This document shows positions 6,490 through 48,483 of a stretch of 64,000 nt of DNA, piece after piece. The notes below the pieces were generated by a model. That model saw nothing but the letters and a program-made list of their open reading frames with translations, was not told the origin of the DNA and made no database searches. How positions within the stretch are numbered: position 1 is the stretch's first letter; each line of letters opens with the position of its first letter. The DNA is from Obrimoposthia wandeli (lineage: Eukaryota), in assembly GCA_977020255.1 (NCBI GenBank), contig CDROCS010001981.1, positions 434,001 through 498,000 of the forward strand, read 5' to 3'. Both the position numbers and the translations under genes were made by a program.

Positions 6490-6569
6490 TTTTAAAATAA
6501 TGAAAGGTAACTAAACTTTTCTTTTTTATAGTCTTTTCTATCTAATTGATTTTATTGATGTGTTAAAAC

Positions 6570-6935: not shown

Positions 6936-6939
6936 CATT

Positions 6940-16135: not shown

Positions 16136-16152
16136 TTATCCTCATTATACTC

Positions 16153-16270
16153 AGTAGGATGATGTATCCAGTCTAATCTACCCCTCCCCTAACCAGAGGG
16201 TAACACTGTCCTTTAAAACCATGCATGTGTGTGGTGTGAAATTTTGTGCATGTGTACATGAATTTCACAT
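16153..16270. mobile_element. Left terminus of a Polinton-like element (family 1)
   Basis: Begins AGTAGGATGATGTATCCAGTCTAATC and contains CACTGTCCTTTAAAACCATGCATGTGTGTGG..TGAAATTT. It is inverted relative to the termini at 32501 and 39473, but has no matching 6-bp TSD with either. Confidence 0.75.
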
Positions 16271-19689: not shown

Positions 19690-20130
19690 ATTCATAACTA
19701 AGTGACTTAATACCAAGTATCATCATCTTCTTGCTCGCAAAAATGTTCACACTTAGTGGATTGTATTTGGCATATCGAAGTCCCGGATAAATTTATGGCT
19801 CGTAAACTGCATCCAATCCCATACTCTTGCTCAGTTTGTTTAGGTTTATCGGTTTTTCCAAAATAGTACTGACGCTGATTGATTGGATTCTTTCGATTTT
19901 ATTATCGAAAGGAAGAGTGCTGTCATCTAACACTGCTTTACAGCCCATTATTGTGAATGTTTCTAAATTATATTAAAAATTAAATTGTAAAATAAATTAC
20001 TAGATTTGAATATTATAATAGAATAATCTTCTCACTTGAGCCGATTCTAGTGTGGCTTCGAATTCCGAAATAGTAAGTGTTGGATGTTTTTTCCATTTCC
20101 ATATAATTAATATTCACAAATTTGAAATTG
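19690..20130 (-). pseudogene. Second TBP-like gene, two exons
   Basis: VNINY...DYSIIIFKS | TFTIMGCK...INLNKL...VYEP*IYPGL...VNIFASKKMMILGIK. A 38-nt GT-AG phase-1 intron at 19963-20000 sits at the same codon as in the 8.6-9.1 kb copy. Confidence 0.75.
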
Positions 20131-21162: not shown

Positions 21163-21325
21163 TTTTAAATATTAAATTAACTTGCTAATTATATAATACT
21201 TATTTTGTTAAGTAGTTAGTTTAATTATATTTAGTAAATTCAATACTACTTTGTTTTATGAGTAGTTAAATAAAATTAGGTTTAATTTTTACAAGTATAT
21301 AGTTAACTAGTAGTAAGTAGCAAAT

Positions 21326-21693
21326 GCTTTTGAGGCAGACTTGGCAGCAAACACTGAGAGACTGCAGAGTATCCAGGGCTCAGGACAAAGATTGATGGAC
21401 AAAGGTCAGTGCATGGGCCAAGAAAGTGCCGTCGACGAGAGAATCATCAAGCTCACCGATCAGTGGAATTATCTGGTAACCAAGTCCAAGGATAAGGCCG
21501 AGAAACTACAAGAAGCCAACAAGCAGGCTGTTTACAATGCCGAGTTATAGGACATATTTTTCTGACTAGAAGAGGTGGAACATTCTCTCTCGAGTCCTGA
21601 CTATGGAAAGGAATCTGCATCTGTGGACAGTCTTTTATCTAAGCATCAAGTTCTGGGAACAGATATCCATATTCATAATGACTGCATCAAGCC
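21326..21693 (+). pseudogene. Intronless alpha-spectrin fragment (parts of two spectrin repeats)
   Basis: AFEADLAANTERLQSI...LMDKGQCMGQESAV...DQWNYL...KLQEANKQ...LEEVE...DYGKESASVDSLLSKHQVL is typical alpha-spectrin. It is one frame with two nonsense codons. Confidence 0.85.
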
Positions 21694-21905
21694 GAGTATG
21701 GAGATTTTCCGAAACATTGATGAGAATTGTCATCCAGGCAATCGGGAGTACCTTCTTGATTATAACAGCACTGGAGAGTCAACGTTTCTGAAGTTGTTGT
21801 TGAAGCAGTTGAAGCCAAATAACGGAGATGTATTTTGCAACAATAAAACCAAGGTTGGATACTTCAACATCGTATATGGATTGAACTTCGAGCAGACATG
21901 GCTGT
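21694..21905 (+). pseudogene. ABC-F family ATPase fragment fused in frame to the spectrin fragment
   Basis: IFRNID...PGNR..LL.YNSTGESTFLKLLLKQLKPNNGDV...KVGYFN resembles the second NBD of ABCF (GKSTLLKLL.G.L.P..G.V.....IGYF.Q). Confidence 0.65.
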
Positions 21906-22029
21906 GGAATCTCCATGACAGAATTGACTCGGTCGCAACGCTTAAACAATGATTAAGGTTGAATAATGAGTTAGAAGAAGCGTGAGCTGCGAAAGTGACT
22001 GAATAACAGCGAACAATTGAAATGTATGT

Positions 22030-25038: not shown

Positions 25039-25740
25039 ACTTCGCAAAGATAACTTCATTAAAATATTAGACAATCTACAACTGCATGCTTACACAGCTT
25101 TAAAATAAATGTGGTTTACTATTTTTTTGTTTCAAAAACTTTCACTAATCCATAATAAATAAAGATCCTTCATTGGCTATGCGATAGACTAAGTTGTAGC
25201 GTGCTTCAAAGGCCTTGTATCCGATACACATTGCATTATTATTGATAATAGATGTTGGATGTTTGTTTTAATATTCGACAATCCGTAAAACGGCAGAATT
25301 TGAATATATCGTTCTCCACTCCATCTTGGAATTAACTACAAGCTATTTCGGATATGAAGGAATTGGAAACCATCAGCACTTTCGATGGGACTTCGCAAAG
25401 ATAACTTCATTAAAATATTAGACAATCTACAACTGCATGCTTACACAGCTTTAAAATAAATGTGGTTTACTATTTTTTTGTTTCAAAAACTTTCACTAAT
25501 CCATAATAAATAAAGATCCTTCATTGGCTATGCGATAGACTAAGTTGTAGCGTGCTTCAAAGGCCTTGTATCCGATACACATTGCATTATTATTGATAAT
25601 AGATGTTGGATGTTTGTTTTAATATTCGACAATCCGTAAAACGGCAGAATTTGAATATATCGTTCTCCACTCCATCTTGGAATTAACTACAAGCTATTTC
25701 GGATATGAAGGAATTGGAAACCATCAGCACTTTCGATGGG
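25039..25740. repeat. 351-bp tandem duplication spanning flank, 5' LTR and gag start
   Basis: 25039-25389 and 25390-25740 read as identical. Confidence 0.9.
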
Positions 25741-26345
25741 ACGTCGAATGTGGATGAGTGAATTAGTGAGATCAAATTGAAGGCCGATCTGCTTGGACTG
25801 GAGAAGAAATTAAGTTCAATTATTCCGCTGAGAATGAAAGGTGAATGTTTAGAATTTAGAAGAAGACGAAAATAGGACGCAGAATCAATTATGAAGCGAT
25901 TAAGGGATACCTATGGGATGGGTCAGCTCGAGGCGTTCAAGCGATTCAGTCAAAGGAAGTGGTACCTCGGAGAATCAGTCGATCGGTTCACGTCGGAATT
26001 GAAAAGTTTGGCATCTAAGATTGGTATGGGAGATAACATTGAAAAATTGGTGCTAGTCGCTGGCCTGCCTTCAGACACTTCAGAAGCTCTGGAAATTTCG
26101 ATGAAGTGTGGATACTGTTCCTTAGATCAAGTTATAGCTGAAGTCCGGACTAGGATGACAAAATAAATTGGAATTGAAGGTATCTTCCAAGTTGTAGCTG
26201 TTCATCATAGAAAAAGAATAATTAATTGAGGAATCAAATGCTTCCGATGTGGAGATGAAGGCCATGTTTCTAGAAACTGATATGTGGAAGAAAAACAAAG
26301 ATGCTACATCTGTAATATAGTTGGTCACTTGGCGCCATTATGTCC
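25705..26345 (+). pseudogene. gag: gag with two CCHC zinc knuckles
   Basis: ATG 13 nt after the LTR; WYLGESVDRF; CFRCGDEGHVSRN* and CYICNIVGHLAPLC. Contains stops and frameshifts. Confidence 0.8.
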
Positions 26346-26399
26346 CAAACGAGAATCAAAAACCACTAAGGGAGTCCGTATGCGCCAGCGGCTCTCCCA

Positions 26400-29181
26400 G
26401 TAATATGTCGTATATTCCAACTGTTATCATCCAAAAAAAAGAAGAAGCTTTGAAAGCAATGGTTGATACGGGATGTTCGAGATCTATTCTTTCGGATGCG
26501 TTGACAGTCAAAGGATTAATCACAAATTTTGATCATAACATAATATTAATGAACGGAGAAAATGTAAATTCGAGGAAGTGCATGGAATGTGAAGTTAATG
26601 TCAATGGACGTAAAATTCGGCTAAATTACATCGTTTCTCGTATAGTACCTGGCTATGACATGTTGTTGGGAATGGATGCTGTCAATATACTTGGTGGAAT
26701 TTAGGTAAGTGGTGATGGAAAGAATGTTAAGTTTGGCCTATTCAATGATGTATATGCGGTATCAGATTCATCGAATCCGGTTGGAGTCGATGATCATGTG
26801 AATGTGCTTCCGGGCAAACAGTTCTTTTTAGAACTAACAATTGATTGTGCGATGGAAGAAATAGTAGGATGTGGTTCCACAGTGAATAGTACATTCAAGT
26901 CAACGGATGAAACTTGTGTACATGAAGGAGGAATGAAAAAATCCCATTCATGGAGAAGTCGTGGATGTCGTGGATAAGGATTTCCATGCAAAGTTCGAGA
27001 ATGGAAGATGGATCGCGAGATGGGAATGGAAAGAAGGAATCGTGAAGCCAGCTCTACAGAACCAGGTGAGTCAATATCGGGTAAAGGACGAGGTACTAAA
27101 TCAATTTGAAGAAGAGATTGAAGAATGGATAGAACAAGGTTGGCTGAGAAAGTATGATGATGAGCACACTGGTGTAATACCTCTCATAGCCGTTCTACAG
27201 CAAAACAAAGGAAACGTTCGTCGTGTGATGGATTATGGAGAGCTTAACGATTATGTTTCAAGCCATACAGCTAAAAGTGAAGTATGTGGCGAAAAGCTGA
27301 GAGAATGGAGGAGATTGGGAGACAACTTGAGCATTGTGGATTTAAGGAAGGCTTATCTACAAATTCATATTGACCCAACTTTGTGGAAATATCAGGTTGT
27401 AGTTTACAAAGGAGTTCGATACTGTTTAACGCGTCTTGGTTTTGGACTCAACGTAGCTCCAAAGATTATGTCAGTAATCGTAAGGTAGGTTTTGTCAATG
27501 GATCAGACGGTGGCAAGTGTAACGGATTCTTATGTAGATGATATAGTTGTTAATGAAGAGATAGTATCTACTGAAGAGGTTATCAATATGTTATTAAAGT
27601 ACGGTTTAGAATCGAAGCCACCAGAAAAGCTGAATGGTGGTAGAGTGCTGGGATTGCGAATTCATCAAAACCAAAATGTGATGGTATGGAAGCGCGACAA
27701 TATACTGGCTAAAGGGAATGACAATTTAACGCGAAGGCAAATGTTTTCTCATTGCAGTCAGATGATTGGACACTTTCCCAAAGCTGGATGGTTGAGACTG
27801 GCGTGTAGTTATTTGAAAAGATTGACAAACGGTACTAATTGGGAAGACAACGTCGAGAGTAAAATCGTTGAAAAGCAGAAAGAAATTGAGGAACGTGTTT
27901 CGGAAAACGATCTTGTGCGAGGAGTTTGGAAAGTGACTGATACGATTGAAGGAACAGTTTGGTGTGATGCTAGCAGTCTCGCAATTGGAGTCGTAGTGGA
28001 TATTGATAGTTCGGTAGTTGAAGACTTCAGTTGGTTGCGGAAGGAAGATGACTTCTCTCACATCAATTTGGCAGAGTTAGAAGCAGTTGTCAAATGACTT
28101 AATTGTGTGATCAAATGGAGGCTGTCGCGAATTCTTGTTTATACAAATTTGTCTACGGTTCATGGCTGGGTAAAGTCAATTACATCGGGAGACAAATGAG
28201 TAAAAACGCATGGTCTTGGATCGGCATTAGCGTATAGGCGACTGAATCTATTGAAAACCATAATAGAAGAATGCAGACTAACTGTTAATATCAGGCTAGT
28301 AAAGTCAGCAGGAAACAAAGCTGATGAGCTTACCAGAGTGTCCCAAAAGCGTGGCCTGCAGTAGCGTAATCGGCAATGAAGCATAAATATTGGCAGTGCA
28401 CAACCTGAATCATCTTGGCATTGACAGAACAACGTATCTTTTAAAATGTCAGTATCCTGAACTCAATGTGAAACGAGAAGAAGTAGCAGCTGTCGTATAA
28501 CGCTGTTTTAAATGTAAAAGTATAGATCCAGCATCAATTCGCTGGGAACATGATGAGTTATCAGTTGATGCAAATTGGAGTCGATTGGCCTGTGATGTAA
28601 CCCATTATTTAGGGAAGTGTTACTTATCCATTATCAATTGTGGACCAAGCCGATTCACCATATGGAAGTTGCTCAATGATGAGACACATTATTCAGTGAC
28701 TACCGCCATGACCGATGTCTTCAGAGAACACGGGTCTCCAGATGAGTTGTTGATGGATAATAACCCAACCTTTAAGTCACGGCATTTTCAAAACGCTTGT
28801 GGATCATGGAAGGTCAAGTGTGTGTTTCGATGTGCTTATCGACCATCAGGAAATGGGATAGTGGAACGTGTTCACAGAACCGTCAAACGAATGGCTGCCA
28901 GAAGCGATGCAGATATTCGCGACATGTGTTTTTGGTATAATGTTTCTCCGAAATGTAGTAACAAGGACAATTCTGTTCCCGTGCGAGAACTGTTTACATA
29001 CGAATGGCGATATCCAAACGTTGAACCAAATTTGTCGACATTTCAAAACATTACAGGTTACAACATGGATCAGGCTGTATTTGTCAAACCTCCCAATGTG
29101 CGTTGCACATCAGTTTGGCCTAAGGGAGTAATTACTGGTTTGAGTGGAGCAACGCAGGTAGAAATCGACGTAATTCCTTGA
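26400..29181 (+). pseudogene. pol: pol (protease, reverse transcriptase, RNase H, integrase)
   Basis: AMVDTGCS (PR); VDLRKAYLQI, LGFGLNVAP, YVDDI (RT); WCDASSLAIG, HINLAELEAV (RH); HHLGIDRT, LACDVTH, LLMDN, GNGIVERVHRT (IN). Multiple in-frame stops. Confidence 0.92.
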
Positions 29182-32100
29182 CACGTGGCCGACGTCAGAC
29201 CGATTCCAATACCACTACCAGAACGGCCAGAGACAAATGCAAATGTAGGAGAAAAATAAGTGGCTTCCGATGATGCCAGAGAATGCCCACAAAGGGCCGT
29301 ACGGCGACCGGCCTATTTAGAAGACTATGTGTGATCTAGAGATCAAGGGGGATTGTTGTTGGATGTTTGTTTTAATATTCGACAATCCGTAAAACGGCAG
29401 AATTTGAATATATCGTTTTCCACGCCATCTTGGATTTAACTACAATAGTATTATTGTTGGTCTTTTTAAATAGAAAAATGACATTTTAAGTGTATTTATA
29501 TACTTTTTATTTATCAATTTTCTTAATAATTTGATTTTCATATTTGTTATTCTTTTTTTCATATTTATAATTATTTTGTAAAAACAATTTAAATAAAAAA
29601 TACATTTTATTATTAAATAAAATAAGAAAATGAGACAATGTACCATGACAATTACAAGCAACCTTTCTCTGAACATCAAGTTTAGTCGAGAAGAATGGAG
29701 GCAAATTCTGAAACGGAATAAAACTATCAAAGGTGTATTTAATAATGTTGATCTTACGATGAGGCAAAAAGCACTATAAATGTAACATCAACTTTATTTA
29801 GCTTATTTTTGTGTTAAGCTAAGTATTTATTAAAATTTAGTTATGTCCAAATTATAAACGTATGATCCTTATTTAGAAATTCTTAGTTGTGTTATCGGTA
29901 GAGATTACGAGCCCCGATAGTTCATGCAAGTAGTGAGACCCGTGGTCCAATTCCCGGTTACGAACCCTAAATTGGCTTAGAAAAAGATTCGATTTGATAT
30001 ATCGTATAACCAAATTAACTCAAATATAACTCAAATTCTTTCTTATTAGTAGAGAAATTCAATGTTGAAAATTATAGAAACTATTATGGATTTTGATCAT
30101 ACAAAGAAATATTTACATGTCACCTTTTTTATCACACCAAATGGGCAAAGTGACATGGTTACTTAAATGAGATAATTTTGGTCTTTTTAAAGATGTAGAA
30201 ATAATTTCTTTATTCTAATAAAACTGTACTCCCGATTTTCTCAATATACATTTTCTTAGAATCATATTCTATGGAATAAAAAAGAAGCAATTGACTATTT
30301 TCATTTATTTATGGCCAAATGTTAATTTTATAAGTTTAAAATTGATGACTAGAATAAAAAATTGTAAAGTATAAATTTGACAGTTAATCCTCCAAATTTC
30401 GGTAAATTTTCTATTTTAAATAAGCAAATATCGACAAGATATATTAGACATTTATTTTATCATTTACATAAATAATTTGAAATTTATATAGTAAAATTTA
30501 ACTCTCGGATAATGAGAATTTAAGAAATCTATTAATGGATATAGTTAATAAATTCATGCTAAACTTCTGTGATGGAACTTTAAAAAATTTAATTGAAAAG
30601 AGTAAAGAATATTTAATCTAATGAAAAAAATAGAATTACCTTAGTCCTCAATTATCAACTCAATATTAACTTCAGTTTTATTTAACCTACCAAAAAAATA
30701 AGAACTTATAAGGCATGAATTAAGGTTTTAATTTTATTAATAGGTCAATTGTCAATATTATTTAAACAATGTTGGTTACATTTCTCTCCTACTTAACTTT
30801 AGCGACTATTATCCGAATCATAATAGATAATGCATCTTACTCAAACTAGCGGCACTAAATACGATGTTCAAAAACTGTTTAATTGCCAAAAATATCCTGC
30901 TTGCATAAAAATTCAAAAACATTGATATGACCATATTTATGCAAAAGGTCTTGAAATTCCAACTCTTGAATTGATGTTTTATGATTTCAACTGTCTCGGC
31001 AAAGCGTTAGTTAGTAATGAACTCGCTTTGGTGCTCTAGCCTTTAATTAAAAAAAAATAAAAAGAGAAAATAAAAAGAGACTGTATTGAAGCAAATTCAA
31101 TTTCTTGTGATTGATTTGATTATAAAGTTACCAAGAATCAATTTATTGTCGTATATGATAGTACGTTCCCTTGAAATCCAGTTAAGCTATCATATACTAA
31201 ATATGGATGAGTTATATTCATATAAAATCATATAAATATGTATACACAACTTGTATTTCTGCATAAATTGACCAAAGTTTCTACTGTAAATAGCAAATTT
31301 ACATATGGGCTGCGAAATATTTGCACGCACACAGAAGTACTGAGATACTAATCCTAATTGAGCAAGAATATGCAAATGGAATAATGAGGAAAACTAACCT
31401 TCGTAGTCTATCATCCCATCACCGTCCTGGTCTGCCTCAGTCACCATTTCTTCTGCCTCTTCTTCGCTCATCTTATCCCCACGAGTCATCAGGATACGTC
31501 TATAACAGCCAAAAAATATCACTTACCTACAAGCTATCTTTCAGAGGTGGACGAACTTATGAGACAGATAAATAATATTACGTAACATCGTCTGATTTAA
31601 GAGATTCATTGCTAACTTTTATTTTAAAATTTAGAAATATTTTTGATATGCATTATTTAATTTAATTTTATGAGGTGAGCAGTATACAGTGACGATTCAG
31701 TGGCATTGCAGCACAACACTTTTAATGTCATTTCCAACTTTCCAATTATCCATAAAAATATGTTCATCAGATCCGATAGCCAATATCCAATTGTTGCATG
31801 ATTTCATTCAATTGTTTAACGTCTTCATGATAACTTTGATGATGAAATCAAACTAGATTTTATTCAATTTGACATGAATGGAGAAGATATATTTTTCTGG
31901 ATTATTCAATAATTCAATCCATAGTAATGATAAGGATCTTGAAGTTGTGGTTTCTTCAATTTGATGGCATCATTGGAGATATCACAATATAAATGTTAAA
32001 TAAAATACTTGCAACTGTTCTTTAAATAAATTGCGTTAGTAAAAGTTATTCGAAATATCGTAGTATTTTGATAATATTTTGTCGACTTTGTGTAGTTGGA

Positions 32101-32199: not shown

Positions 32200-32501
32200 T
32201 TTACCGGGTTTATGCATGCCCGAAGGGCAGGCGTTGGCCCTCTGATGGTCTCTCAGGCACTTCGAATTTCAGTACACCACTTTCACCACTGTACCATTCC
32301 CGCCAGTTAACTGCACTTGTGCAGTTGAAAAGTGTATATATGTCTCAGGACATGTATAGAATTTTATTCACTCACATGCTGGAAATTCCACTTGACACAC
32401 ATGCAGGAAATTTCATTCCACACACATGCACGGTTTTAAAGGACAGTGATACCATCCCCCACGGGGGAGGGAGTGGATTAGACCGGACATAACCACCTAC
32501 T
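32200..32501. mobile_element. Right terminal region of a Polinton-like element (family 1)
   Basis: Ends ...GGATTAGACCGGACATAACCACCTACT at 32501. Contains the family-1 subterminal motif and a CCCCCACGGGGG hairpin. Confidence 0.75.
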
Positions 32502-33023
32502 CATGACTTCTCATTAAAGCACTTTGGAATCCAAAGTTTGGATATGTTATGTGCCTTTCGTATTAACATTAGATAAGATATATTCAAATTATACACAAAT
32601 AAATACTTCTCAATTTATTGTGATCCGGAACTTTTTGAAGCTAGTATTTTGAAATTATTTCATTAGTAAGAATTACTTTTATTATCTTCATGATACTTCA
32701 TTTTGTAGTCATGTGAATAAATGATTTAATTGTTAAATGTTTTTATTATCATTCAGTTATTTCATTGTTGAAGATCAAATGTGATGCCTATCCTGCAGGG
32801 CTCGACACTTAGGAGACTCCGTAAGTGAGACTTTGGTAAAAAATAAACAAAGTCTCGAAAATACATAAAAACATTGTAAAAACCGCGAAATTTAAAAATT
32901 CATAAAGTCTTATAAGTCGTACATAAGGGAATTTTCAGTATAAGGTCAATTCTTAAAACCGTGCATACGAGAACAATTCTTGAAATCTTGCATACGGGAA
33001 TTTGATTCATTTTGAGTGATTTG

Positions 33024-33110
33024 TAGTAGAATAGCGTGTTGGGACGGAAATGATGGAATAAAGAGCGCAGCTTTGTTCTGCCATTCCCGTACCGACACTA
33101 TATACTACTA
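33024..33110. repeat. 87-bp imperfect palindrome (MITE-like)
   Basis: TAGTAGAATAGCGTGTTGGGACGGAAATG... pairs with ...CATTCCCGTACCGACACTATATACTACTA. A related copy lies at 7766-7826. Confidence 0.65.
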
Positions 33111-33582
33111 TATCGTACATTAGCTAGCAGTCTTGGATCTTAACAAATTGCGAATGTATCAACTGCAATGTAGAAAATTATAACAATATAGTGTGAAACC
33201 TAATTGGGAGATTAACATGGCGATGGATACGGATTCATTTTTCCTCGGGTGTAAGAATGTAAACAAAATGTGAATGGATAATTTTCAAAATATTTTCAAA
33301 TAAAGGTGTATTATGTAACGGAAACCATTAAACAATTCATTGCATATTATGTAATTTTTTCTCTAATTATGTAACAAAAAGACAATCACAATCTATATAT
33401 TTTATATCTGATTCGTTAAAAATTATCCAAAAGTTAAAAACGAAGTTGGAAGTAGCTCTTGTGCCTTAACTTTCTCATCTTCTTCATCACTAGAATTGTC
33501 TTCAATATTATCGTCATGAAATTTATAATTTAAACTTTTTTCGGTTTTAAAATAATTCTTAATACAATTAACTGATATGTAT

Positions 33583-35825
33583 AGTAGGTACTTTGATGGA
33601 GTCTAGACCACTGGGGGGGGTCCCCCCTTGTGTGCGCACACCAAGTTAAAGGGTGTCACACCATAAGGGTGTCACACCATAGAAATGTCACACCATAGCG
33701 TGTCACACCATAAGGGTATATGTTGCCTCACCATAGGGGTGTCTTGCCATACCATAAGGGTCTGGCTCAGAAAGGTTATGAAGGTTTGAAGGTATGGTCG
33801 TGTCCGTCTATGGTCGGCCAACATACCCAAGGGGTTGTGGTCGTCCATAGGTCAAAGGGTCGGGGTCAGTTTTGACTTGAAACTTTGAAGGTATAATTAA
33901 GGTCAACTATGGTTGGCCGTCACATCTAAAGGGTTGTGGTCGTCCATAGGTCAAAGGGTCGGGGTCAGTTTTGACTTGAAACTTTGAAGGTATAATTAAG
34001 GTCAACTATGGTTGGCCGTCACATCTAAAGGGTTGTGGTCGTCCATAATTCAAAGGGTCAAGGTCAGTTTTGACTTGAAACTTTGAAGGTATAATTAAAG
34101 TCAACTATGGTTGGCCATCACATCTACAGGGTTGTGGTCGTCCATAGGTGAAAGGGTCGGGCTAAAAACAAAGTCAAGTTTAAAATATCAAGGTTTTAGT
34201 ACATGGTTGGAATCATCTTTAGAAGGTGAATTCAGTCATAAAGTATGGTCGGTCATATATGAAGGGTTCGGGATATAGACCAAATCAAGTTTTAAATGTC
34301 AAAGTTTGAATACATGGTTGGAATCATCTTTAGAAGACGAATTCATCCATATATGTATGGTCGTCCATAGATGAAGGGTTAAAGAAAAGTTGGAATTTCA
34401 TAGTTTCAAGTACATGGTTGTATTCGTCAACATATTACGAGTTTAATCATGTAAAATTTTTATGGTCGTTCACAAGTTAAGGGTCAGATTTGGAACAAAC
34501 ATGATAATTTTATTACATGGTTGTATTTGCATATGAAAATTGACTTCAAAGATACCCTTAAGGTCATGCATACTTTAAGAGGTCCTTGTGAAAAAAAAAA
34601 AATACTTGTAATTTTCTAAAATAAAAATATTTTTAAATTTAAATTTGTGCCAAATTATTTTGTTAGATTTTGGTAAAGATAAACAAATTTTTAATTTAAC
34701 GGGTTTTTTAAGATATTAAAGTAACATTATTTAAAATAAATATTAAGGAAAAAGTTAATAAACTCAAATTACTTTACTAATAGTATTATTATTATTATAA
34801 TTTGGTAAATATTTAAATTTACGCAAATTTTTATCCATTTTATTAATGTAATTAAACAATTCTTTGCGGAAAAATTACTTGTAATTTTGTTTTTCTTCAA
34901 AATAATAATAATTTAAATTTGCGCCAATTTAATTTGTTAGATATTAATAAAGTTAAACAAATTTTAATTTAACAAGTTTTTAAATATTAAAGTACCAACA
35001 CATCTATCAATCAATTATTCTATGTGAAAGTTCACTCTTATCAGTTAAGGAATGTAAGGAACCCTTTAGATGTGATGGCCAACCATAGTTGACCTTAATT
35101 ATACCTTCAAAGTTTCAAGTCAAAACTGACCTTGACCCTTTGAATTATGGACGACCACAACCCTTTAGATGTGACGGCCAACCATAGTTGACCTTAATTA
35201 TACCTTCAAAGTTTCAAGTCAAAACTGACCTTGACCCTTTGAATTATGGACGACCACAACCCTTTAGATGTGACGGCCAACCATAGTTGACCTTAATTAT
35301 ACCTTCAAAGTTTCAAGTCAAAACTGACCCCGACCCTTTGACCTATGGACGACCACAACCCTTTAGATGTGACGGCCAACCATAGTTGACCTTAATTATA
35401 CCTTCAAAGTTTAAAGTCAAAACTGACCCCGACCCTTTGACCTATGGACGACCACAACCCCTTGGGTATGTTGGCCGACCATAGACCGTCATGACCATAC
35501 CTTCAAACCTTCAAGTCAAAACTGACCCCGACCCTTTGATCTATGGACGACCAAAACCCCTTGGGTATGTTGGCCGACCATAGACGGTCACGACCATACC
35601 TTCAAACCTTCATAACCTTTCTGAGCCAGACCCTTATGGTGTGGCAAGACACCCCTATGGTGAGGCAACATATACCCTTATGGTGTGACACGCTATGGTG
35701 TGACATTTCTATGGTGTGACACCCTTATGGTGTGACACCCTTATGGTGTGACACCCTTTAACTTGGTGTGCGCACACAAGAGGGGGGGACCCCCCAGTGG
35801 TCTAGACTCCATCAAAGTACCTACT
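33583..35825. mobile_element. Complete non-autonomous Polinton-type element (family 2), 2243 bp, no coding capacity
   Basis: Termini AGTAGG...CCTACT, perfect 6-bp TSD ATGTAT (33577-33582 and 35826-35831), near-identical long TIRs (~560 bp left, ~770 bp right) built of ~17-bp and 99-bp tandem units, and an AT-rich core. Confidence 0.9.
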
Positions 35826-38800
35826 ATGTATTACCACACTTGTCTCTTTTCTCTACATTTCGTAAGTATGTTATTAAATTAGTCATTTATAGTAACAAAA
35901 GAATTCAAACACGTCTTAATAAATTCCTATTTTATTAATTTGTTCAATATTTATATTTTCTATTTATAATTTTAGCTCCAATCATACTTTTATTTTGGCA
36001 CTTTGTCCCAAGATTAGTCTTAAAAATGAAATTTATTTCACAATAATCGATTTCTGCCGACAGAATGTCTTCTTGTTTTGCTTATTCTCATTTGGCCTAC
36101 TCCAGTTATTACATCTGTTTAACAACTCAAAATGCATAAAAAAAGAAAAAAAATCTAGAAAGAAATATTAAAAGAAACATAAAATCCAAGAAATATTTAT
36201 TTACGAATTTTGATTTCAACTCATATTTCTCTCACGTAATCCATGAAACGAAAAGTCTCTGGATCCTCGTTTTCATTGATAGCTGTCATCCAGACATGTC
36301 GACTCGACTCTGGTGGGACTAGAGATAAAGCAGACGCACGCCAAACCATCTAGTTAAAAGCTTCTTCCTTTGTGTAACGGATAAAAATCTCAAATTTTGC
36401 ACTTTTCTATAAATGGCTTGAAAGACTGGAGAATGCACACATTGGGAAATATGTGTAAATTGTGTCATATTGAAATTTTAATACTTATTATATACGCTGA
36501 AGTACGAGTCCAAACCGCGGCTTTATAAGGCTGAGGCATGCTAGTGTAGTTCCTCTCATTTTTGCCAAGAAACAAAGATACAATGACAGGCATGACATGT
36601 CTCTACTGTTAGACCAATATGGAGTGTACTTGCTTCGTAATGTAATGTACAGTAAAAATTTGAAAAATCCAGATTAGGCAAAACGAGAATATGTGAAACA
36701 GTACTGTTATAATTCAGTTTCATTAAATGCTTAATATTATTAAAAGTTATAAATATTATTTGTTTACATTCTTTTAGAAGATATTATTGTTTTACTATAT
36801 AAATTACAGTTTTGTAGTTTGTATAACTGCGGCAATAAGGGATTTGAGTGGGCTGAGGACTAATATAAATAGTCATTGCCCTTGTGCAACTGTGTTAGTA
36901 CCATGGAATTAGGAGAAATTAGGATTAGAATAAATATTCTGAGTATTTAAAGATAAACAAATTGACCTTCCACAACAAAATAATGAAATAATAATTAACA
37001 ATAATTTGAAATCAGGGTTAAAGGGGAAAGAAATTAAATATGAAAGTTCTCGAATTACGAGTCTGTAACAATAACAAACAAAGCTCTCAGTCGTGATAAG
37101 AAGCAAGCTATCGTATAATTTAATTGTAGCAGAATACATTTTATAAATCAACATAGAATATAAATTGTTGTCCTTTCGGGACATTGTACCCAGTTTCACT
37201 TTTAGAAACATTCGAACTTCGATACTTGAAGGCCTGAGATCTCACTCGTCGGATCACTGCCTGTACTTATTATCGGAAATGCCGTGATCGACACAGTGAG
37301 ATTCAGCCCAATAACCACCAGCGTCTCTTGGATGGGGCCTCGCTAAACTATTTTTAAAAGTCTACAAATATTCGCCTAACTGGTAAACGATCTAATCCTA
37401 TATAACAACACCATGGGTTTGATGATTATCATTATCTTCACACACCACAACACATATCACTTACAACAAGAGAGGCCTTTAAAACAAATCGTAACAGAAC
37501 CTTCTGTCGGTACATCCCGAGAGAATCGGAAGAAACAGTTTTAGAAACCCCAACATTTGCTTAGTACCATATATAAGGGATAACAATTGGCAGACAGATG
37601 TGAGATTGAATGGTTGAAGAAGTGCATTGGTGAAGAGTACTTAAATAAGACTAAGTCGATTTAAACTAGAATTCCGATGACATCAGTAAAGAAGACAATG
37701 CTGAATTCTACAAGTATCTCACTAAGGATTGTCAAGACCATTTGACTGTCAAATACTAACCAGTAGAGGTAACTGGAGTTCAGAGCGTTGCACTTTGATA
37801 GAGTCAACTGTAAAAAGCTTTCTGATATTTCGAGATATCACTCAATGTCGAGTGGCGCAGATCAAACTAGTCTGAAATATTACGGTTCTAGAATAAAAGA
37901 GAATCAGAAGAATATCTATTACATTAGTGGCGAAAGTAAACACACAAAACTTTCGGAATTAACAACTAACAACTTATAACAAGTACGTAACTGCCGATAT
38001 TGACGAACAATTTTCTTGGTGGGGAATTTAAAATCGCATGTATACCCTAATGTTTCCGTCATACACGAAGCAGATATAAATGAATTCATTTACAGGTAAA
38101 AGATAGTATCTTACCGGTTCGGAAACACACGAAATAAGCCAAATTTTACTGTATTACTATTTTATGCCAAATGGGTTTTTACTTTATGTTCAATGTGTCG
38201 ATTTAATCTAAAATAATCTAAAGGATATTGCTTTTAGGTTCGATACAAACTTACTTTAGAGAAGGAAACCCGATAAATCGATTAGCATAAATACAAACTT
38301 GAGATAATCTCTCGGAATGGAGCCGGTTTTGTCGATATCAAAGACTAGAAAAGCATTCTTTATATCCTCGACAGTGACCGGTTGACTGACGATAGATTTC
38401 ATCAGGTTCACAAATTCAGAAAAGTCGATAGTGCCACTACCTGAAAAATTTGACTTATTAAGCTGAATAAATCTATTGTGAAATCGTGGTGAAAATCTAT
38501 TAGTGAATCTTTTAAAAATAATAACTTCTCCATAAATAAAAGAGAAAATGAAGATAAATTAAACGTTGTAATCAATAATTATTTTTACGATATTAAAGAA
38601 GACTCATTTTTAAAATTTGAATTAGAAAACTTTACAAGGTTTCCTTATTGTAAATTCGTATTCTTGCCGAAAAGGTTAAACTAAAAAAGTTAATGAGAAC
38701 GATTAGTCTGGCACAACTTGTCGAGTTTCTTGATAGTATGTTCAAATTTCGATGGATGTAAACTCAGATTTTCCCTCTCGATAATATCTCGCCTGTTTCT

Positions 38801-39379
38801 TCCTTGGGCATTTTTCTACAATATAAAAGGATGGGAACTAGATACGGCCGTAATTCACAACATCTCAAAGACCTGGATATTCAATTACAACGGTATGGAG
38901 ATGTCTTCAAAACTGGATCATTCTGTAATTCTAAGAATGCACATTTTATGTGACAAGAAACCCTAAAATTAACTATGTTTTAGAATACAATATGATGGGT
39001 TAATATGAAAATTAGAGCATACTTTAAACTGATAATCATTCAGTTCTGATGTCCATGCTTTTACGAACCATCAGTATCAGCAGAGGTAATTATATCCTGA
39101 AGTTCCTCCTCGGTGAATTCCTTTCCAAGTGATCGCAGAACCACTCCCAACTCTACGATATCGATTGTGCCACTGCTGTCACGGTCGAAATGACAAAATG
39201 CCTCGTAGAACTCTGTAAAGGAAGGGAGAATGACATATTAGCTGATAAAGATTATCAAAAACGTGATAGAGCACAGCGATATAAATTAAATTAAAGTACA
39301 TAAAAGTAGTTTTTAAATGTAAAGGATGACTGAGGGAAAACCCTATCCTAATTCGTGCCCGAAACATACAAAAATAACA

Positions 39380-39473
39380 AGCACGAAATATCACTCCACA
39401 CACATGCTCGGTGGTAAAGGACATTGTTACCCCCATGGGGAGGGTTGGATTAGACCGGACACATCCATCTACT
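39380..39473. mobile_element. Right terminus of a Polinton-like element (family 1)
   Basis: Ends ...GGATTAGACCGGACACATCCATCTACT at 39473. Contains CCCCATGGGG and a variant subterminal motif. Confidence 0.7.
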
Positions 39474-41466
39474 ATTTATTTCTTAAATTACTCATACAAT
39501 TATAAAAGTCTTTTTACGAAACACACATTTTTTCGTGGCGTATTTAAAAAAATTGACAGTTAAACATCTTTTTATAAATTGATATTCCAATTGTACATTT
39601 AAAAATAAGAAAATTAGAAAATTCTAAAAGAATCAAAATTTAAAACGTGCAGAAATCTGTCTGAAAAACATGCGATATATCTGAGATATGTATATATAAA
39701 AATAATACAAAAGTTTTTCCGAATTTTTTTTGAAGCCAGTTGAATTTCTTTTTAATACTCTGACTTTTGAATTTTGTTTATTTTGAGCTAAAATATCTCA
39801 AATGGATAAATTTTATGTCAATTTATTTTAATGTAATTTAATATTTCCGTCTATTAATATAGCTAAACGAATCATTAATGAAGTGTATTTCTCAAAACAT
39901 TAACATCTATGTTATCTGTAACATATTTAAATTTTGGTTCAACACAGCTTAAACTTGTAAAGTTTCATAAAGTTTTAATAACTTTGATGTTTATCGAGAT
40001 GAATGCAAAAGGTACGATTTTGTTCTTAATTGTCCCAAATAAATAATATGCAGCATACGATAGTAAAATTACAGTGTTAGGAATAGGTTTTGTTAAAATT
40101 AAATAATTAAGTGAATTTATACTAAAATGAAAATCCTTGAAAACAAGGTTAAAATTAAATAAAATTAAAATGTAAAATTAAAATGTTAAAAGTAAATAGG
40201 TAAATAAATTTTAGAAGACCACGAAGGTCGTGTGAAATGCGTGAGTATATATAATGTTAAATTAAAAAACAAAGTGGCAAAGAATTAGGAGAATTAAGAA
40301 AATCCAATTAACCAAAAGTGCAAGAAGCCAGAAACCAGGAAATCAGATCCGAGAGAGGTGGCGATCCAGCCGCGACAGCCACTCGTGGCAGCGTGGTCGA
40401 CAAATGTGGCTCGAAAACCACAATTTGTACAGACCAAACTCCACCCTGTTTCACCCAAGCCCACACCTCAGCATCGGAAAGCAGATGGCCCTCTTCCTGG
40501 ATGACACCCCATCCTTTCCGCTCTTGCCACTGAAGCAAGTGATGCGTTTTCTAGACGACAGAAACACGCCGGACGTGGACAATTAACATTGATTGCCCTT
40601 CATCCTTTCCTTGACATCAACAATTTACATGATACCAACCCATTCACCCTCCTGATCCTTTCCTTGTGTGTAAATTTTTTAGTTGTGTATAATAAATTAG
40701 TGAATATTTGAGACTCTGTCCAAATATTCACTATCTTAACGAAAACCGAGTTTTGGCAAAAAAATTTGGGCCTGTTTGATGAGTTGAATGACTGATTTAG
40801 TAGGGATGAACCTAAAATCAACAGCCAGATGCTTGTAAGAGTAAAATCGATACGTTCCGGGGTCGTAACTTTTTTAGAACCCCCGAGATATGTTAGGAAT
40901 AGGTTTTGTTAAAATTAAATAATTAAGTGAATTTATACTAAAATGAAAATCCTTGAAAACAAGGTTAAAATTAAATAAAATTAAAATGTAAAATTAAAAT
41001 GTTAAAAGTAAATAGATAAATAAATATTAGAAGACCACGAAGGTCGTGTGAAATGCGTGAGTATATATAATGTTAAATTAAAAAACAAAGTGGCAAAGAA
41101 TTAAGAGAATTAAGAAAATCCAATTAACCAAAAGTGCAAGAAGCCAGAAACCAGGAAATCAATCAATTCAATAAGTGATTGACAGTTCACTTCCGTTCTG
41201 CTCCGAAGAAATTAGTCGCCAGCTGCCAACCAAGTGATTGACAGCAACCAACATTGCTAGAAGAGGACCACAATAAGGAAGACAAGAAACTGATTGACAA
41301 GCAACCAGCAAGTAGCTAGAGACTATATAAGTCTACGCCTATACCTAAAAATCAATACTGCGCTAAGGACTTACGAAAAGCTACTGATTTCAAGAAGCTA
41401 CCGATCCCGAGAAGAAACTGAGGTAAAACACACAAATTCCAAATAGATATAATAGAATTAATAGAA

Positions 41467-41592
41467 GGATTCGGATCGAGCCATCTCTCCGACAAACTCA
41501 CTATTGTGCTAAGGATTCGGATCGAGCCATCTCTCCGACAAACTCACTACTGTGCTAAGGATTCGGATTGAGCCATCTCTCTGACAAACTCG
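41467..41592. repeat. 46-bp tandem repeat, ~2.7 copies
   Basis: AGGATTCGGATCGAGCCATCTCTCCGACAAACTCACTATTGTGCTA units. Confidence 0.85.
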
Positions 41593-41690
41593 GAATTTTA
41601 ATTGGAGGTGAGCCGAGAAAGAAATTGGTAAAGAGTACTTTCATAAAATAGAATTGGTAGTGAGTAATTTCGAGAATTTTGTAGCAAGTA

Positions 41691-42135
41691 TTTTCATATC
41701 GTAAAGTATAATTTGATAGTGAATAATTTCATATCGTAAAGTATAATTGGATAACGAATATTTTCATATCGTAAAGTATAATTTGATAACGAATATTTTC
41801 ATATCGTAAAGTATAATTTGATAACGAATATTTTCATATCGTAAAGTATAATTTGATAACGAATATTTTCATATCGTAAAGTATAATTTGATAACGAATA
41901 TTTTCATATCGTAAAGTATAATTTGATAACGAATATTTTCATATCGTAAAGTATAAATTTGATAACGAATATTTTCATATCGTAAAGTATAATTTGATAA
42001 CGAATATTTTCATATCGTAAAGTATAATTTGATAACGAATATTTTCATATCGTAAAGTATAATTTGATAGTGAATATTTTCATATCGTCAAGTATAATTT
42101 GATAGCGAATATTTTCATATAGAAAAGTATAATTT
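41691..42135. repeat. 35-bp tandem array, ~12 copies
   Basis: TTTTCATATCGTAAAGTATAATTTGATAACGAATA units with no spacers. Confidence 0.95.
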
Positions 42136-43539
42136 GTTCATAAAGGAGAATTTGGTAGCGCGTATTTTAGTGAATTAGAGAAATTTGATAATATATAAGT
42201 TGAATTCTAATTTATAAATTGAAAGGAATTTAATAACGTAATTTTGAATCACAAAATAAGTTCTAGATCTCTAAGTTCAAGACTCTAACAGCCAACCAAC
42301 CCTAGTTTAAAATCGATACGTGGTTCATCCCCACAGGTGTAGAGACTTTCCGAAGTCTTAGGAATTTTACTACAACTTTTTAGAAAATACGTGCGTAAAC
42401 GTATTGTTTTGTTAGTCTAGTGTTAACAATAAACGATTTCCTACATTAGAAATCATTGTTCTAAACCCTTCAGATTAAGAGACGTTAAAATACAAACCTT
42501 CAGATAAGAATTGAGACAGGCAACCATAACATTAAGTAGGCCACGACCAACTTTAAGACCTGCTTCTACAGAACTCACGTTGGGGCCCTCCACATTCAAG
42601 AGGATATATAAGTTTCATATAGAAACCCCAACAACAGTATGAAAAATACAAATATTGATCCTATTTATCGATTTTTCATATTATATAATAATGAAAGCAG
42701 TGATTCACAGAAATTGATAGATTTGAGTAATTGCTCAAACATTATATTTAACTTTTTTTCTTCCTGATTTTATTAAAATGTTTGGGAGTTTAATCTGTAC
42801 CAGAATGTTTATTTCAAACAATATTGTAAATTTGAATATTACTGCACAGCGAAAAATCTAGAAAACATAGATTAAACGATGTTGTAAACAAGTAACTCTA
42901 TCACAGTGTAAAATTAAATGTACGACGGATTCCAAAAGAAATCTTCTGTCTGAAAACATTTATAACATTAATTATATTAAAAAAATATTGTCAATTATTT
43001 TCTTTCATAATTCCCATAATAATTTTTTTTCAATAGTATATTAATAATTTTCAATTCCTTAAAACTTCAATATTTTTTCTGTGCCATTTTCATTGATGGG
43101 ATCCATAAATTCAAAATTGACCAAAGCTACTAACATTTATTCAAACCTTGACTTCAAATATTGTGGCAAAAATGTTGGGGTTTCTATATGAAACTTATAG
43201 ATTCTCTTGAATGTGGAGGGCCCCAACGTGAGTTCTTATAGAAGCAGGACTTAAGGATGGTTGTGGCCTACTTAATGTTATAGTTGCCTGTCTCAATTCT
43301 TATCTGAAGGTGTTTGTTTTCCGATGTCTCTTAATCTGAAGGGTTTAGAACAACGCTTTCTAATGTAGGAAATCGTTTATTGTTAACACACTAGACTAAC
43401 ACAAAGCAATACGTTTACGTACGTATTTCTAAAAAGTTACAGTAAATTCCTAAGACTTCTGTAAGTCTCTACACAAGTGGGGATGAACCACGTATCGATT
43501 CTAATTTAGGTTTGGTTAATTTCGTAGAGTCTTTATATG

Positions 43540-44540
43540 GGCAATTCAAGTTATTCAAAATTTCAAGATTTACTTTAAACTCTTTCAATATAGGCAATTC
43601 AAGTTATTCAAAATTTCACGATTTACTTTAAACTCTTTCAAGATCGGCAATTCAAGTTATTCAATAATTTCACAATTTACTTTACTCTTTCAATATAGGC
43701 AATTCAAATTATTCAATTTCACAATTTACTTTAAATCAATTTATGGCAATTCAATTTCACAATTTACTTTAAATCAATATATGGCAATTCAATTTCACAA
43801 TTTTACTTTAAATCAATATATGGCGATTCAATTTCACAATTTACTTTAAATCAATATATGGCAATTCAATTTCACAATTTACTTTAAATCAATATATGGC
43901 AATTCACTTTCACAATTTTACTTTAAATCAATATATGGCAATTCACTTTCACAATTTTACTTTAAATCAATATATGGAAATTCAATTTCACAATTTACTT
44001 TAAATCAATATATGGCAATTCACTTTCACAATTTACTTTAAATCAATATATGGCAATTCAATTTCACAATTTACTTTAAATCAATATATGGCAATTCACT
44101 TTCACAATTTTACTTTAAATCAATATATGGCAATTCAATTTCACAATTTACTTTAAATCAATATATGGCAATTCAATTTCACAATTTTACTTTAAATCAA
44201 TATATGGCAATTCAATTTCACAATTTACTTTAAATCAATATATGGCAATTCACTTTCACAATTTTACTTTAAATCAATATATGGCAATTCACTTTCACAA
44301 TTTTACTTTAAATCAATATATGGAAATTCAATTTCACAATTTACTTTAAATCAATATATGGAAATTCAATTTCACAATTTACTTTAAATCAATATATGGC
44401 AATTCACTTTCACAATTTACTTTAAATCAATATATGGCAATTCACTTTCACAATTTTACTTTAAATCAATATATGGCGATTCAATTTCACAATTTACTTT
44501 AAATCAATATATGGCAATTCACTTTCACAATTTTACTTTG
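43540..44540. repeat. 38-39-bp tandem array, ~21 regular plus ~5 degenerate copies
   Basis: GCAATTCAATTTCACAATTTACTTTAAATCAATATATG units. Confidence 0.95.
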
Positions 44541-45055
44541 AATTATTATACTTCTGTTAGGTTTAGGAATTAGGAAATTAAAATAATTAGTCGATTTTAT
44601 ACTAAAATAAAAATCCTTGAAAGCAAGGTTGAAAATTAAATTAAATATTAATTTTAAAATTCAAAACTAAAATTATTAGGATAAATATTAGGAGGACCAC
44701 GAAGGTCGTGTATAGTGTGTGATATATAAGGTTAGAATTAATTAACCCAAAAGTGCAAAAAAGGGAACAATCTAAAAATCTGCAAACGTCAGCAGAAAAA
44801 CAAAAAGAAGAAAAAAGGTAAGCACATTTACGTGCAATTGATTAGATTAATTTGATATTAGCAGCTGCCCGGACTCACGTTGGACTCAAGTTTGCTGATT
44901 GACAGCAAACAATCCTATATAAGTCGCTGAGAACGCACCAGTGAACAAAAAACAGCAAAGTAAAGAAAAATCAATATTCCAGGTCTACTGAGCGGAATCG
45001 GAGATTTGGTAAGTGGAGATTTGGTAATTTCATTGAATTAAACTAGTCTAGATCA

Positions 45056-45515
45056 CAACTTATTGTTGAAAAGAATAATTGCCTACTGTCCAACTTATTG
45101 CTGAAAAGAATAATTGCCTACTGTCCAACTTCTTGTTGAAAAGAATAATTGCCTACTGTCCAACTTATTGCTGAAAAGAATAATTGCCTACTGTCCAACT
45201 TATTGTTGAAAAGAATAATTGCCTACTGTCCAACTTATTGTTGAAAAGAATAATTGCCTACTGTCCAACTTATTGTTGAAAAGAATAATCGCCTACTGTC
45301 CAACTTATTGTTGAAAAGAATAATTGCCTACTGTCCAACTTATTGTTGAAAAGAATAATTGCCTACTGTCCAACTTATTGTTGAAAAGAATAATTGCCTA
45401 CTGTCCAACTTATTGTTGAAAAGAATAATCGCCTACTGTCCAACTTATTGTTGAAAAGAATAATCGCCTACTGTCCAACTTATTGTTTAAAAGAATAATC
45501 GCCTATTACCCAATC
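45056..45515. repeat. 35-bp tandem array, ~13 copies
   Basis: CAACTTATTGTTGAAAAGAATAATTGCCTACTGTC units. Confidence 0.95.
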
Positions 45516-45624
45516 TATTGCTTAAAAGAAGCCGATCGTCTCAATAATTCCAGCTAATTCCAGTGCCGGATTTGACGTAGTCGCAGCTAGTCGCAGCATA
45601 GGTGAGAAAACTGTTTAAAATAAT

Positions 45625-46095
45625 CATTGTCCCTAGTTGACAATTAGGATAAATTCATTGTCCCTTGTTGACAATTAGGATTTGTCTTTAACATATTCAT
45701 TGTCCCTAGTTGACAATTAGGATTTGTCTTTAACATATTCATTGTCCCTAGTTGACAATTAGGATTTGTCTTTAACATATTCATTGTCCCTAGTTGACAA
45801 TTAGGATTTGTCTCTAATATTGTTCCGAATTTGTGTGTAATATTCATTGTCCCTAGTTGACAATTCGGATCACATCATTGTCCCTAGTTGACAATTCGGA
45901 TCACATCATTGTCCCTAGTTGACAATTCGAATCGAATATTCATTGTCCCTAGTTGACAATTCGGATCACATCATTGTCCCTAGTTGACAATTAGGATCAC
46001 ATATTCATTGTCCCACGTTGACAATTAGGATCGCGTATTCATTGTCCATCGTTGACAATTAGGTTTTTATAAGAATCATTGTCCACAGTTGACAA
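45625..46095. repeat. Variable-length (31-60 bp) tandem array, ~13 copies, with palindromic core
   Basis: Invariant core CATTGTCCCTAGTTGACAATT(A/C)GGAT with variable linkers. Confidence 0.9.
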
Positions 46096-47564
46096 TTCGT
46101 GTTGAATTCACAGCAATAGAATTGCCGAGTCAAGAAAACTTTACCCATACATTTTAAATTAAGTTGAAGAAGTTTTAAGGGAGTTGTGTTATAAATTAAC
46201 CAACCTAGGAAGAAGATTGCATTCGCACCTTTATCGCCATAAGAATAAAGGTGTAACCCCAAAATTCAAGCCGATAGCAAAGTAAAATTACTAAGAAAGC
46301 TATAACGCGAGCTTATTCTCGAGTTAGAAGAATAACTCTAAAATCTCGATCACCCCGAACGTAAAATCGATACGTGGTTCATCCCCACTTGTTGTAGAGA
46401 CTTACAGAAGTCTTAGGAATTTTTACTGTACTTTTTAGAAAATACGTACATAAACGTATTGTTGTGTTTAGTTTCGTGAATTACCAATAAACGATTTCCT
46501 ACATTAGAACAAGTTGTTTTTGCACCCTTCAGATTAAGAGACATCAAATCAAATACCTTCAGATAGTTCAAGAGATAGGCAACCATAACACTAAGTAGGC
46601 CACGACCAACTTTAAGACCTGCTTCTATTCGAACTCACGTTGGGGCCCTCCGCATTTAAGAGGATCTGTACAAGTTTCGTATAGAAACCCCAACACTTCT
46701 TACACGAAATGGAAAGCCGTCCGTTGTTTGATTCGCAAGAGTCCTGGTATCAGTGATGCTCCTCGCGCTGCGTATGAGATTGAGAGCCGTTCAATCCTTC
46801 CTGGCTTGGCTCCGACTTGTCTGAGGGCGCGATTCGATTTTGTGTTGTCTTCTTCTTATTGACTTCTATTCTGGCAATCTTCTTGTTTGTTTCTGGCCAT
46901 TTATATAAGTCCAATTTTCCTCCATATCCGCCCCTCCCCGAGTGATAAGTGCTTCCAATCGACTCCTGTCTGCACTCTCCGCTCCTTCCCCGAGTGATAA
47001 GTGCTTCTAATTGATTCCTGTCTGCACTTGCTCAGCAGGCTCGGCTGCTCGCCTTCTCAGTTCCTATAATGATCTAAAACAGAGCACTTAACAAAAGCAC
47101 TTACTTGTAGACAGCCGTCCAAGTTCCCTGTGCGGCTCTGCACAGTAATGGATTATTGCTGGATTTCTTCTTAATTGAGTGACTGACTCAACTCTCCAAA
47201 ATGAGTTAATTAATTCCTTAAATTCGTTTAATTTGGACTTTCTTAACCGGCTAATTCTGTTTTTTGGGGCCCTTTTTGTTAACGTTAACTTCTATAAATA
47301 CTTACACATCACACACGACCTTCGTGGTCCCTAAATATTTTATTACAATTTTAATCTCATCAATTTCAATTTTTATATTAAATTTATCTAATTCTAACCT
47401 TGCTTTCAAGGATTTCTATTTCACTATAAAATCAATTAATTATTTAATTTATTTCAAAACCTAAACCTAACAAAAACAATGTCTGTCTTGTCTATTTATA
47501 CAAGGCAGACATCTTTATTTCTATAGTATAATTGATTGAATACTATATATAATTTCTTAATTTA

Positions 47565-48483
47565 TGCCAAATCTAACCATTACCTTGTGAACGACCATAA
47601 CATTTTTACATGATTAAACTCGTAATATGTTGACGAATACAACCATGTACTTGAAACTATGAAATTCCAACTTTTCTTTAACCCTTCATCTATGGACGAC
47701 CATACATATATGGATGAATTCGTCTTCTAAAGATGATTCCAACCATGTATTCAAACTTTGACATTTAAAACTTGATTTGGTCTATATCCCGAACCCTTCA
47801 TATATGACTGACCATACTTTATGACTGAATTCACCTTCTAAAGATGATTCCAACCATGTACTAAAACCTTGATATTTTAAACTTGACTTTGTTTTTAGCC
47901 CGACCCTTTCACCTATGGACGACCACAACCCTTTAGATGTGACGGCCAACCATAGTTAACCTTAATTATACCTTCAAAGTTTCAAGTCAAAACTGACCTT
48001 GACCCTTTGAATTATGGACGACCACAACCCTTTAGATGTGACGGCCAACCATAGTTGACCTTAATTATACCTTCAAACCTTCAAGTCAAAACTGAGTCTG
48101 ACCCTTTGATTTATGGACGACCACAACCCTTTAGATGTGATGGCCAACCATTGTTGACCTTAATCATACCTTCAAACCTTCAAGTCAAAACTGACCTTGA
48201 CCCTTTAAATTATGGACGACCACAACCCTTTAGTGGTTGACAAAAAGAATGGTGGAGACTAGATCAATTGACCCTTCCCCCTCCCCCTATCTTAACCTTT
48301 ATGAGCCAAACCCTTATGGTGTGGCAAGACACCCTTATGGCGTGACACTCTTATGGTGAGTCAACATATACATTTATGGTGTGACATTTCTATGGTGTGA
48401 CACCCTTATGTTGTAAAATAATTTAACATTGTGTGCGCACAGTGGGGGGGTCAAGTGGTCTCTTCTCCATCCTTCTACCTACT
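47565..48483. mobile_element. One-ended relative of the family-2 mini-Polinton
   Basis: Reverse-complement homology to 33583-34500, including the 99-bp and 17-bp units. Ends ...TCTACCTACT at 48483 with a diverged terminal ~50 bp. Confidence 0.85.

Follow-up and report, generated by a model that had tools for sequence, protein, structure and literature searches.

A gene-less 2.2-kb element with high-copy ends in Obrimoposthia wandeli, probably a non-autonomous Polinton derivative

We describe an element of 2243 bp at positions 33583-35825 (no strand assigned) of a 64,000-nucleotide stretch of Obrimoposthia wandeli DNA, called the window throughout. The element begins with AGTAGG and ends with CCTACT, and AGTAGGTACTTTGATGGAGTCTAGACCACT is read inward from both ends. 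At this one locus the hexamer ATGTAT stands directly outside both ends, as a left copy at 33577-33582 (+) and a right copy at 35826-35831 (+); the chance of a 6-bp flanking repeat, at the composition of the flanks, is p ~6e-4. The first 19 bases of the element occur twice in the window, versus a mean of 0.02 in 100 shuffles. Its longest stop-free frame is 59 amino acids, and Rfam returned no matches for it. An earlier note on this DNA had reported AGTAGG termini, an ATGTAT target-site duplication (TSD) and no ORF, and all of this was found again, at the same coordinates and at both ends and both flanks. The 2.2-kb stretch is a discrete, gene-less insertion that has AG ends and is flanked by a 6-bp duplication.

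The part of the left arm that matches the right arm, the terminal inverted repeat (TIR) proper, is 576 bp long (33583-34158, +), and the right arm is 766 bp long (35060-35825, -). Together they form 59.8% of the 2243 bp, as the earlier estimate of about 60 percent had it. Aligned over 562 columns, the two arms show 6 mismatches, with additional indels of 2, 3, 16 and 99 bp, and the order of unit types is identical in both. Short units of 15-23 bp ending in CACCAT-like words recur with a 16-bp period at 33649-33761 (+), with two exact 16-mers in the left arm and three in the right; the unit is thus 16 bp with variants and not 17 bp, as previously given. The 99-bp arrays are indeed unequal in unit number, with 3.6 copies on the left (33808-34161, +) and 5.1-5.2 on the right (35060-35635, -) as counted by TRF. 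Decayed units of 111, 112 and 105 bp (34135-34530, +) extend the left arm inward by a further ~370 bp, to about 34530; they are homologous to the 99-mers (48-57% identical) and have no counterpart in the right arm. Repeat-derived arm sequence therefore accounts for ~76% of the element. The only sequence not derived from the arms is an A+T-rich core of 529 bp (34531-35059, no strand assigned; GC 0.19), which contains a direct duplication of ~130 bp with 80% identity (34597-34726 and 34870-34997). The inner edge of the right arm is abrupt and falls inside a 99-bp unit, and 35059/35060 is a candidate deletion junction. A word of the GTGGT/ATGGT type recurs in the repeat units, always oriented inward. 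A hairpin composed of a G-run, T and a C-run is located 31-45 bases from each end (33613-33627 and 35781-35795); it varies in run length from one arm to the other, and no other part of the end is as variable in the contigs considered below. Terminal hairpins of five ends folded no better than shuffles (z -1.60 to 0.36), and one 99-bp unit, in one of six folds, gave z -2.53.

A relative of the element is found at 47561-48483. Its inner portion (47561-48233, -) is a near-identical fragment of the left-arm interior, made of 99-bp and decayed units, and matches element positions 33983-34455 at 468 of 473 bases. The remainder (48239-48483, -) is an older terminal piece of 245 bp from the same family. 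This piece has an intact AGTAGG end at 48483, preceded by C, and a decayed second end at ~48239 that faces it (27 of 45 matches; a local score reached by none of 500 shuffles); no TSD was detected around it. The relative had been described as diverged and one-ended. Divergence is confirmed for the outer 300 bp, which are 77-84% identical to the element, but the inner part is almost unchanged and a second end is present. As judged from its sequence, the relative is a mosaic, rearranged fragment.

Four runs of one sample contain the region. Three of these (X2, X3 and X5), and in addition the small-share run X1, were used here as assembled contigs, aligned to 33000-33800 only; 25 of the 28,549 aligned pieces are listed individually. 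Run X1 (marine metagenome, share 0.06) provided a single contig of 113 bp, which we do not take as a sign of habitat. One X2 contig (record 2, depth 51.7) crosses the left junction with 0 differences. It is unbroken through 33582, and the empty-site allele for which the earlier note had advised a search was not seen there, in one sample and in contigs, which drop rare variants. The same contig bears on the idea that the element is an artefact of assembly, or that two oppositely oriented satellite arrays came to lie side by side by chance. Tandem arrays are numerous in the region, and the contig alignment covered the left junction only. However, that junction recurs in an independent contig assembly, although probably of the same sample, the TSD is perfect at the p value given above and the arms differ in unit number; we consider an artefact very improbable.

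Depth, which as a sum over contigs does not equal copy number, is 52-124 in X2 in the two flank bins nearest the element and jumps to 295,222 and 933,594 in the two bins that follow, the first to reach the element; this step at the left end recurs in X3 and X5. Three of the eight X5 records listed (records 19-21) align from exactly 33583 and have 195-236 bp of other sequence beyond that point, while in X2 record 5 the alignment begins at 33582 and the other sequence outside it measures 620 bp. Among the listed contigs with another flank, three of four thus begin at 33583 and one at 33582; a further listed contig (record 18) begins at 33582 with its own first base. The depth step and the joining of the same end to other flanks show that the end belongs to a high-copy family. 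Depth ratios to the flank correspond to 186-18,058 ends at the tip in X2 and 82-29,984 in X3, and to at least 1,363 ends at 33756-33782; the low values of these ranges assume a 31-fold overcount by overlapping contigs, which is our own assumption. From the point at which the flank contig breaks, 25 bases inside the element, a best estimate of ~700 identical ends (range 38-3,582) is obtained if no target preference is assumed. Short end variants also recur in the contigs, one of them at a depth of 3,142 versus the flank depth of 51.7. The 9,660 X2 contigs comprise 2,650 with identity of 99% or more, 3,938 with 95-99%, 2,431 with 90-95% and 641 with less than 90%, and thus stem from many genomic copies of mixed age and not from one amplified molecule. 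The end of the element is that of a large dispersed family with roughly hundreds to thousands of ends. A count of copies had been recommended earlier; it yields ends that are dispersed and high in number, but neither the window nor the contigs over 33000-33800 showed another whole 2.2-kb copy with two ends and flanking TSDs. Recent activity, previously proposed from the near identity of the TIRs, fits both the 6 mismatches in 562 columns and the 2,650 X2 contigs at 99% or more, but it is undatable: the arm difference of 1.1% speaks for a young insertion only on the condition that both arms had the same sequence when the element arrived.

Four other AG-type ends in the window constitute a second family, family B: 3658-3741 (-), 16153-16255 (+), 32397-32501 (-), which lies 1.1 kb left of the element, and 39377-39473 (-), with their tips at 3741, 16153, 32501 and 39473. 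The left terminal motif of the element, AGTAGGT-N11-GTCTAGACCAC (33583-33611, +), has the same register as in the other AG-ended families of the window and is a putative recognition site for an integrase or polymerase. At positions 19-29, where the element and family B have a motif in common, at least 8 of 11 bases match in only 7 of the 121 AGTAG sites of the window, namely the two element ends, the relative and the four family-B ends; this comparison window was picked after inspection of the ends, and the four family-B ends are related and not independent tests. Positions 1-11 of the element and the family-B ends differ at 3 or more sites, which is beyond a 1-mismatch rule (PMC4455052, in the part of that source available). 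Past the first 30 bases the similarity is not above that of shuffles, and family B is therefore not established as the helper. No family-B end pairs with a TSD. A reading of the facing ends at 16153 and 32501 as those of a single intact element finds no support, their flanks being ATACTC and CATGAC; the 16.3 kb between them hold an ATPase remnant, TBP-like, RING/BIR and spectrin fragments and an LTR retrotransposon.

This remnant is a broken packaging ATPase of the A32 type (17874-18475, -), located 1.7 kb inside the family-B end at 16153 and outside the element. It is 65% identical to PF04665 (A32 domain) proteins and has a frameshift and three stops. Autonomous copies had been called dead in this region, and for the window, to which this evidence applies, they appear so. 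Pfam searches with 131 of the 174 window frames of at least 62 amino acids detected no Polinton polymerase, capsid or Polinton integrase. We discounted the rve integrase at 28501-29178 as a candidate helper; it is downstream of protease and RT-like frames between LTR-like repeats. The read-through frame at 16890-17498 matched no Pfam family, gave two repetitive matches that are probably spurious, and had no match on the opposite strand. No usable Polinton with ends was found at the loci of ATPase relatives (0 of 8 candidates); further sets gave one weak case among the 600 matches listed and one among the 601 listed. Exact or gapped end patterns had no matches in viral contigs, metagenome contigs or prokaryote genomes.

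The ORF at 26-517 (-), 164 amino acids, lies 3.2 kb inside the family-B end at 3658-3741. It has unnamed eukaryotic look-alikes at a score of 0.97, a best named look-alike, Maelstrom, at a score of 0.87, and one homologue with 45% identity; the Maelstrom identity may serve as a lead only. Among insect polintons, one group is characterised by a mael gene (10.1101/2025.02.07.637071, available part). Intronless TBP-like frames (PF00352) are present at 8619-8972 (-) and 19703-19948 (-), with E values of 1.6e-07 and 5.9e-08; the second has an internal stop and is 1.2 kb from the ATPase remnant, and a TBP-like gene may therefore be Polinton cargo here. Inverted copies, 75% identical, of one apparently intron-containing gene are found at 1228-2956 and 4585-6351, each adjoining an AGTAGG end (3741 and 6935) in the orientation opposite to that end; an ORF is recorded at 2280-2879. 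A third end family, with canonical AGTAGT, is represented at 7826 (-) and 33109 (-). Raised depth is seen in the flank at 33109, which is also where three of the listed contigs end.

The window contains a variety of other features. An LTR retrotransposon remnant at 25039-29445 comprises a protease, an RT-like frame and rve, and has a tandem 351-bp duplication, 99% identical, at its left end. Large young tandem arrays with units of 46, 35, 38/39, 35, 42 and 31 bp (88-98% matches) occupy 41465-46698 and are framed by inverted and direct repeats of ~340 bp (42294-42633, 43173-43517 and 46362-46698), of which a further partial copy is found near 52600. Another dispersed repeat family has members at 40075-40345, 40891-41161, 44555-44762, 47228-47472, 53978-54159 and 54575-54678, one pair being 99% identical. 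Host-like pieces of genes include spectrin joined to an ABC-like stretch (21317-21949), HSP90 (37773-37976), EF-hand (38259-38558), an intact C2H2 zinc-finger ORF (11783-13009) and an intronless RING-TRAF ORF (60122-61153), for which none of 1,169 candidates was a homologue.

The boundary of the element requires some care. Formally, the inverted repeat seen here could also reach further outward, by one base to give TAG ends with TGTA duplicated, or by two bases to give ATAG ends with GT. Several extensions being possible, the boundary must be set from other copies. The depth step and the other-flank contigs define the family boundary; the contigs that begin at 33583, together with the C before AGTAGG in the relative, place the end at AG and give a TSD of 6 bp.

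The same question separates Polinton-type ends from those of a foldback-type, non-autonomous cut-and-paste element moved by an unrelated DDE transposase. Such an element could have TAG...CTA ends and the 4-bp TSD TGTA, as in Academ-like elements, which have TAG ends and a 3-4-bp TSD, or it could have TA..TA ends. Arms of tandem units, as seen here, are typical of foldback elements; the extensions just described and the two listed contigs that begin at 33582 (records 5 and 18) also speak for it. However, an Academ-like element should have T before AG at every end, and records 19-21 and the relative lack it. The second variant would be of the IS3EU/GingerRoot kind, which is like our element in having a 6-bp TSD and TIRs and unlike it in its ends, given as TA..TA and sometimes TG..CA (PMC10045372, available part). 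That pattern fails here because the flanks would be TATGTA and TGTATT, which are unequal. The end motif, moreover, is common to ends that lie beside Polinton-type genes. A foldback origin is thus improbable in our judgment.

The comparison with Polintons (Mavericks) and their derivatives below relies on the available parts of the sources cited. Vertebrate Mavericks have 6-bp TSDs, ends of AGT or AG repeats, and TIRs of 46-1,447 bp (PMC8097293), a range that includes the 576- and 766-bp arms. The element resembles Polintons/Mavericks in its 6-bp TSD, its AG-starting ends and its TIRs of several hundred bases (PMC8097293; 10.1101/2023.08.22.554363). AGTAGG agrees with (AGT)2 at 5 of 6 positions but is not itself (AGT)2, (AG)3 or (AC)3A, the terminal motifs of a vertebrate-only list (PMC8097293). 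The differences are substantial: the element is 2243 bp long, versus 12.7-24.6 kb (same two sources), it has none of the polymerase, integrase, ATPase and capsid genes of autonomous copies, and its apparent copy number is far higher. It therefore has neither the gene set nor the length of ~13-25 kb of an autonomous Polinton/Maverick. It does have the features of a non-autonomous one, namely a 6-bp TSD (at one locus), AG...CT ends and long TIRs, and, like a MITE, its ends are present in many dispersed copies. The affinity to Polintons proposed in the earlier note is supported by the AG ends, the 6-bp TSD, the TIR range and the end motif in common with ends near Polinton-type remnants. The element is probably a non-autonomous Polinton derivative, of a known kind.

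Non-autonomous Polintons were reportedly described by Kapitonov and Jurka in 2006, and the N1 in a name such as Polinton-1N1_DR stands for non-autonomous. Polinton-1N1_DR is named among the Repbase Polintons (PMC9341505, available part), and Repbase classes such elements by their ends and TSD (PMC4455052). Compared by description only, our element is like these in having Polinton-type ends and TSD without a full gene set, and unlike them in having arms composed of 16- and 99-bp units. Elements with an N name are not in every case gene-less, as Polinton-N1A_NV has a capsid gene (PMC11296320, available part). Two further cases are alike in that Polinton-ended DNA persists or moves without a polymerase. 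In Pieris, polintons without polB stay mobile, but as far as the accessible text goes they keep other Polinton genes (10.1101/2025.02.07.637071). In C. elegans, TIR-only remnants of Polintons are, according to the accessible text, rearrangement products at one locus and not a dispersed gene-less family (10.1101/2024.01.15.575659). We found no short, high-copy, gene-less Polinton family in the literature; this is a weak negative, with subscription journals, supplements and Repbase outside its coverage.

The structure of the arms bears on a different origin for the 2.2-kb form. What inserted here, recently, could have been a longer element, either a Polinton or a gene-less one with Polinton ends, whose interior was then removed by one deletion; 1,477 bp would remain from its left end and 766 bp from its right, and the present 2.2-kb form would be a one-off fossil and not mobile. 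The asymmetry of the arms suits this origin, the left one continuing while the right one stops abruptly inside a 99-bp unit at 35060. In addition, the window holds no relative other than a rearranged fragment and abounds in ends without a partner, and a second whole copy was seen neither there nor in the contigs over 33000-33800. Against a deletion in place, the retained 2.2 kb have no coding trace, and short end variants recur in the contigs, one at the high depth noted above. The end family has hundreds or thousands of members, versus fewer than 10 Polintons, and no non-autonomous ones, in Anolis (PMC3014272, in the part available). A large number of ends, however, need not mean many mini elements, since over 1,600 gene-bearing polintovirus regions are reported for some coral genomes, with 1,676 polintovirus regions in one genome (10.1101/2023.10.06.561300, available part). 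We regard a deletion in place as possible but somewhat unlikely. Under it the element would be an ordinary remnant in a Polinton-rich region.

Our preferred reading, to which we assign a probability of roughly 0.55, is that the element derives from a Polinton/Maverick, or from a longer Polinton-ended element that itself had no genes, and that it is gene-less, retains only the cis-acting ends and was inserted in trans. The integrase of a helper Polinton would bind the first ~30 bases, i.e. AGTAGGT and the block at positions 19-29, and would insert the gene-less unit at a 6-bp stagger. Less firmly, the free form may be copied by the protein-primed polymerase of the helper, with the arms pairing into a panhandle. 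Under such copying the two arms within a copy would stay similar, and entire units of 16 and 99 bp could be gained or lost by slippage. This panhandle model is drawn from general knowledge of Polintons and adenoviruses, and excision and re-insertion by the integrase only would fit the data equally well. The repeat units, by their sequence, probably add protein-binding sites. To our knowledge, Polinton replication and integration have been modelled from sequence, and the cis requirements are untested.

A more ambitious version of the derivative reading, which we put forward tentatively and think unlikely as a whole, is a MITE-like burst, in which short gene-less units reached thousands of copies by means of a helper's integrase and protein-primed polymerase, with the two-block end as the minimal origin. 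In this version several end families would have converged on, or kept, AGTAGGT, 11 free bases and a GTCTARWCCAC-like block; the two-block end would serve an animal Polinton as both minimal replication origin and attachment site; and satellites made of such units could occur in free linear form or inside capsids.

As non-autonomous Polintons are already known, the points of interest here are the high copy number and the common end motif. If the gene-less, high-copy family is real, it would show what suffices in cis, and its variant ends would map the recognition site. If an expansion on the scale of MITEs has taken place, more repeat DNA would be creditable to Polintons, which are usually rare per genome.
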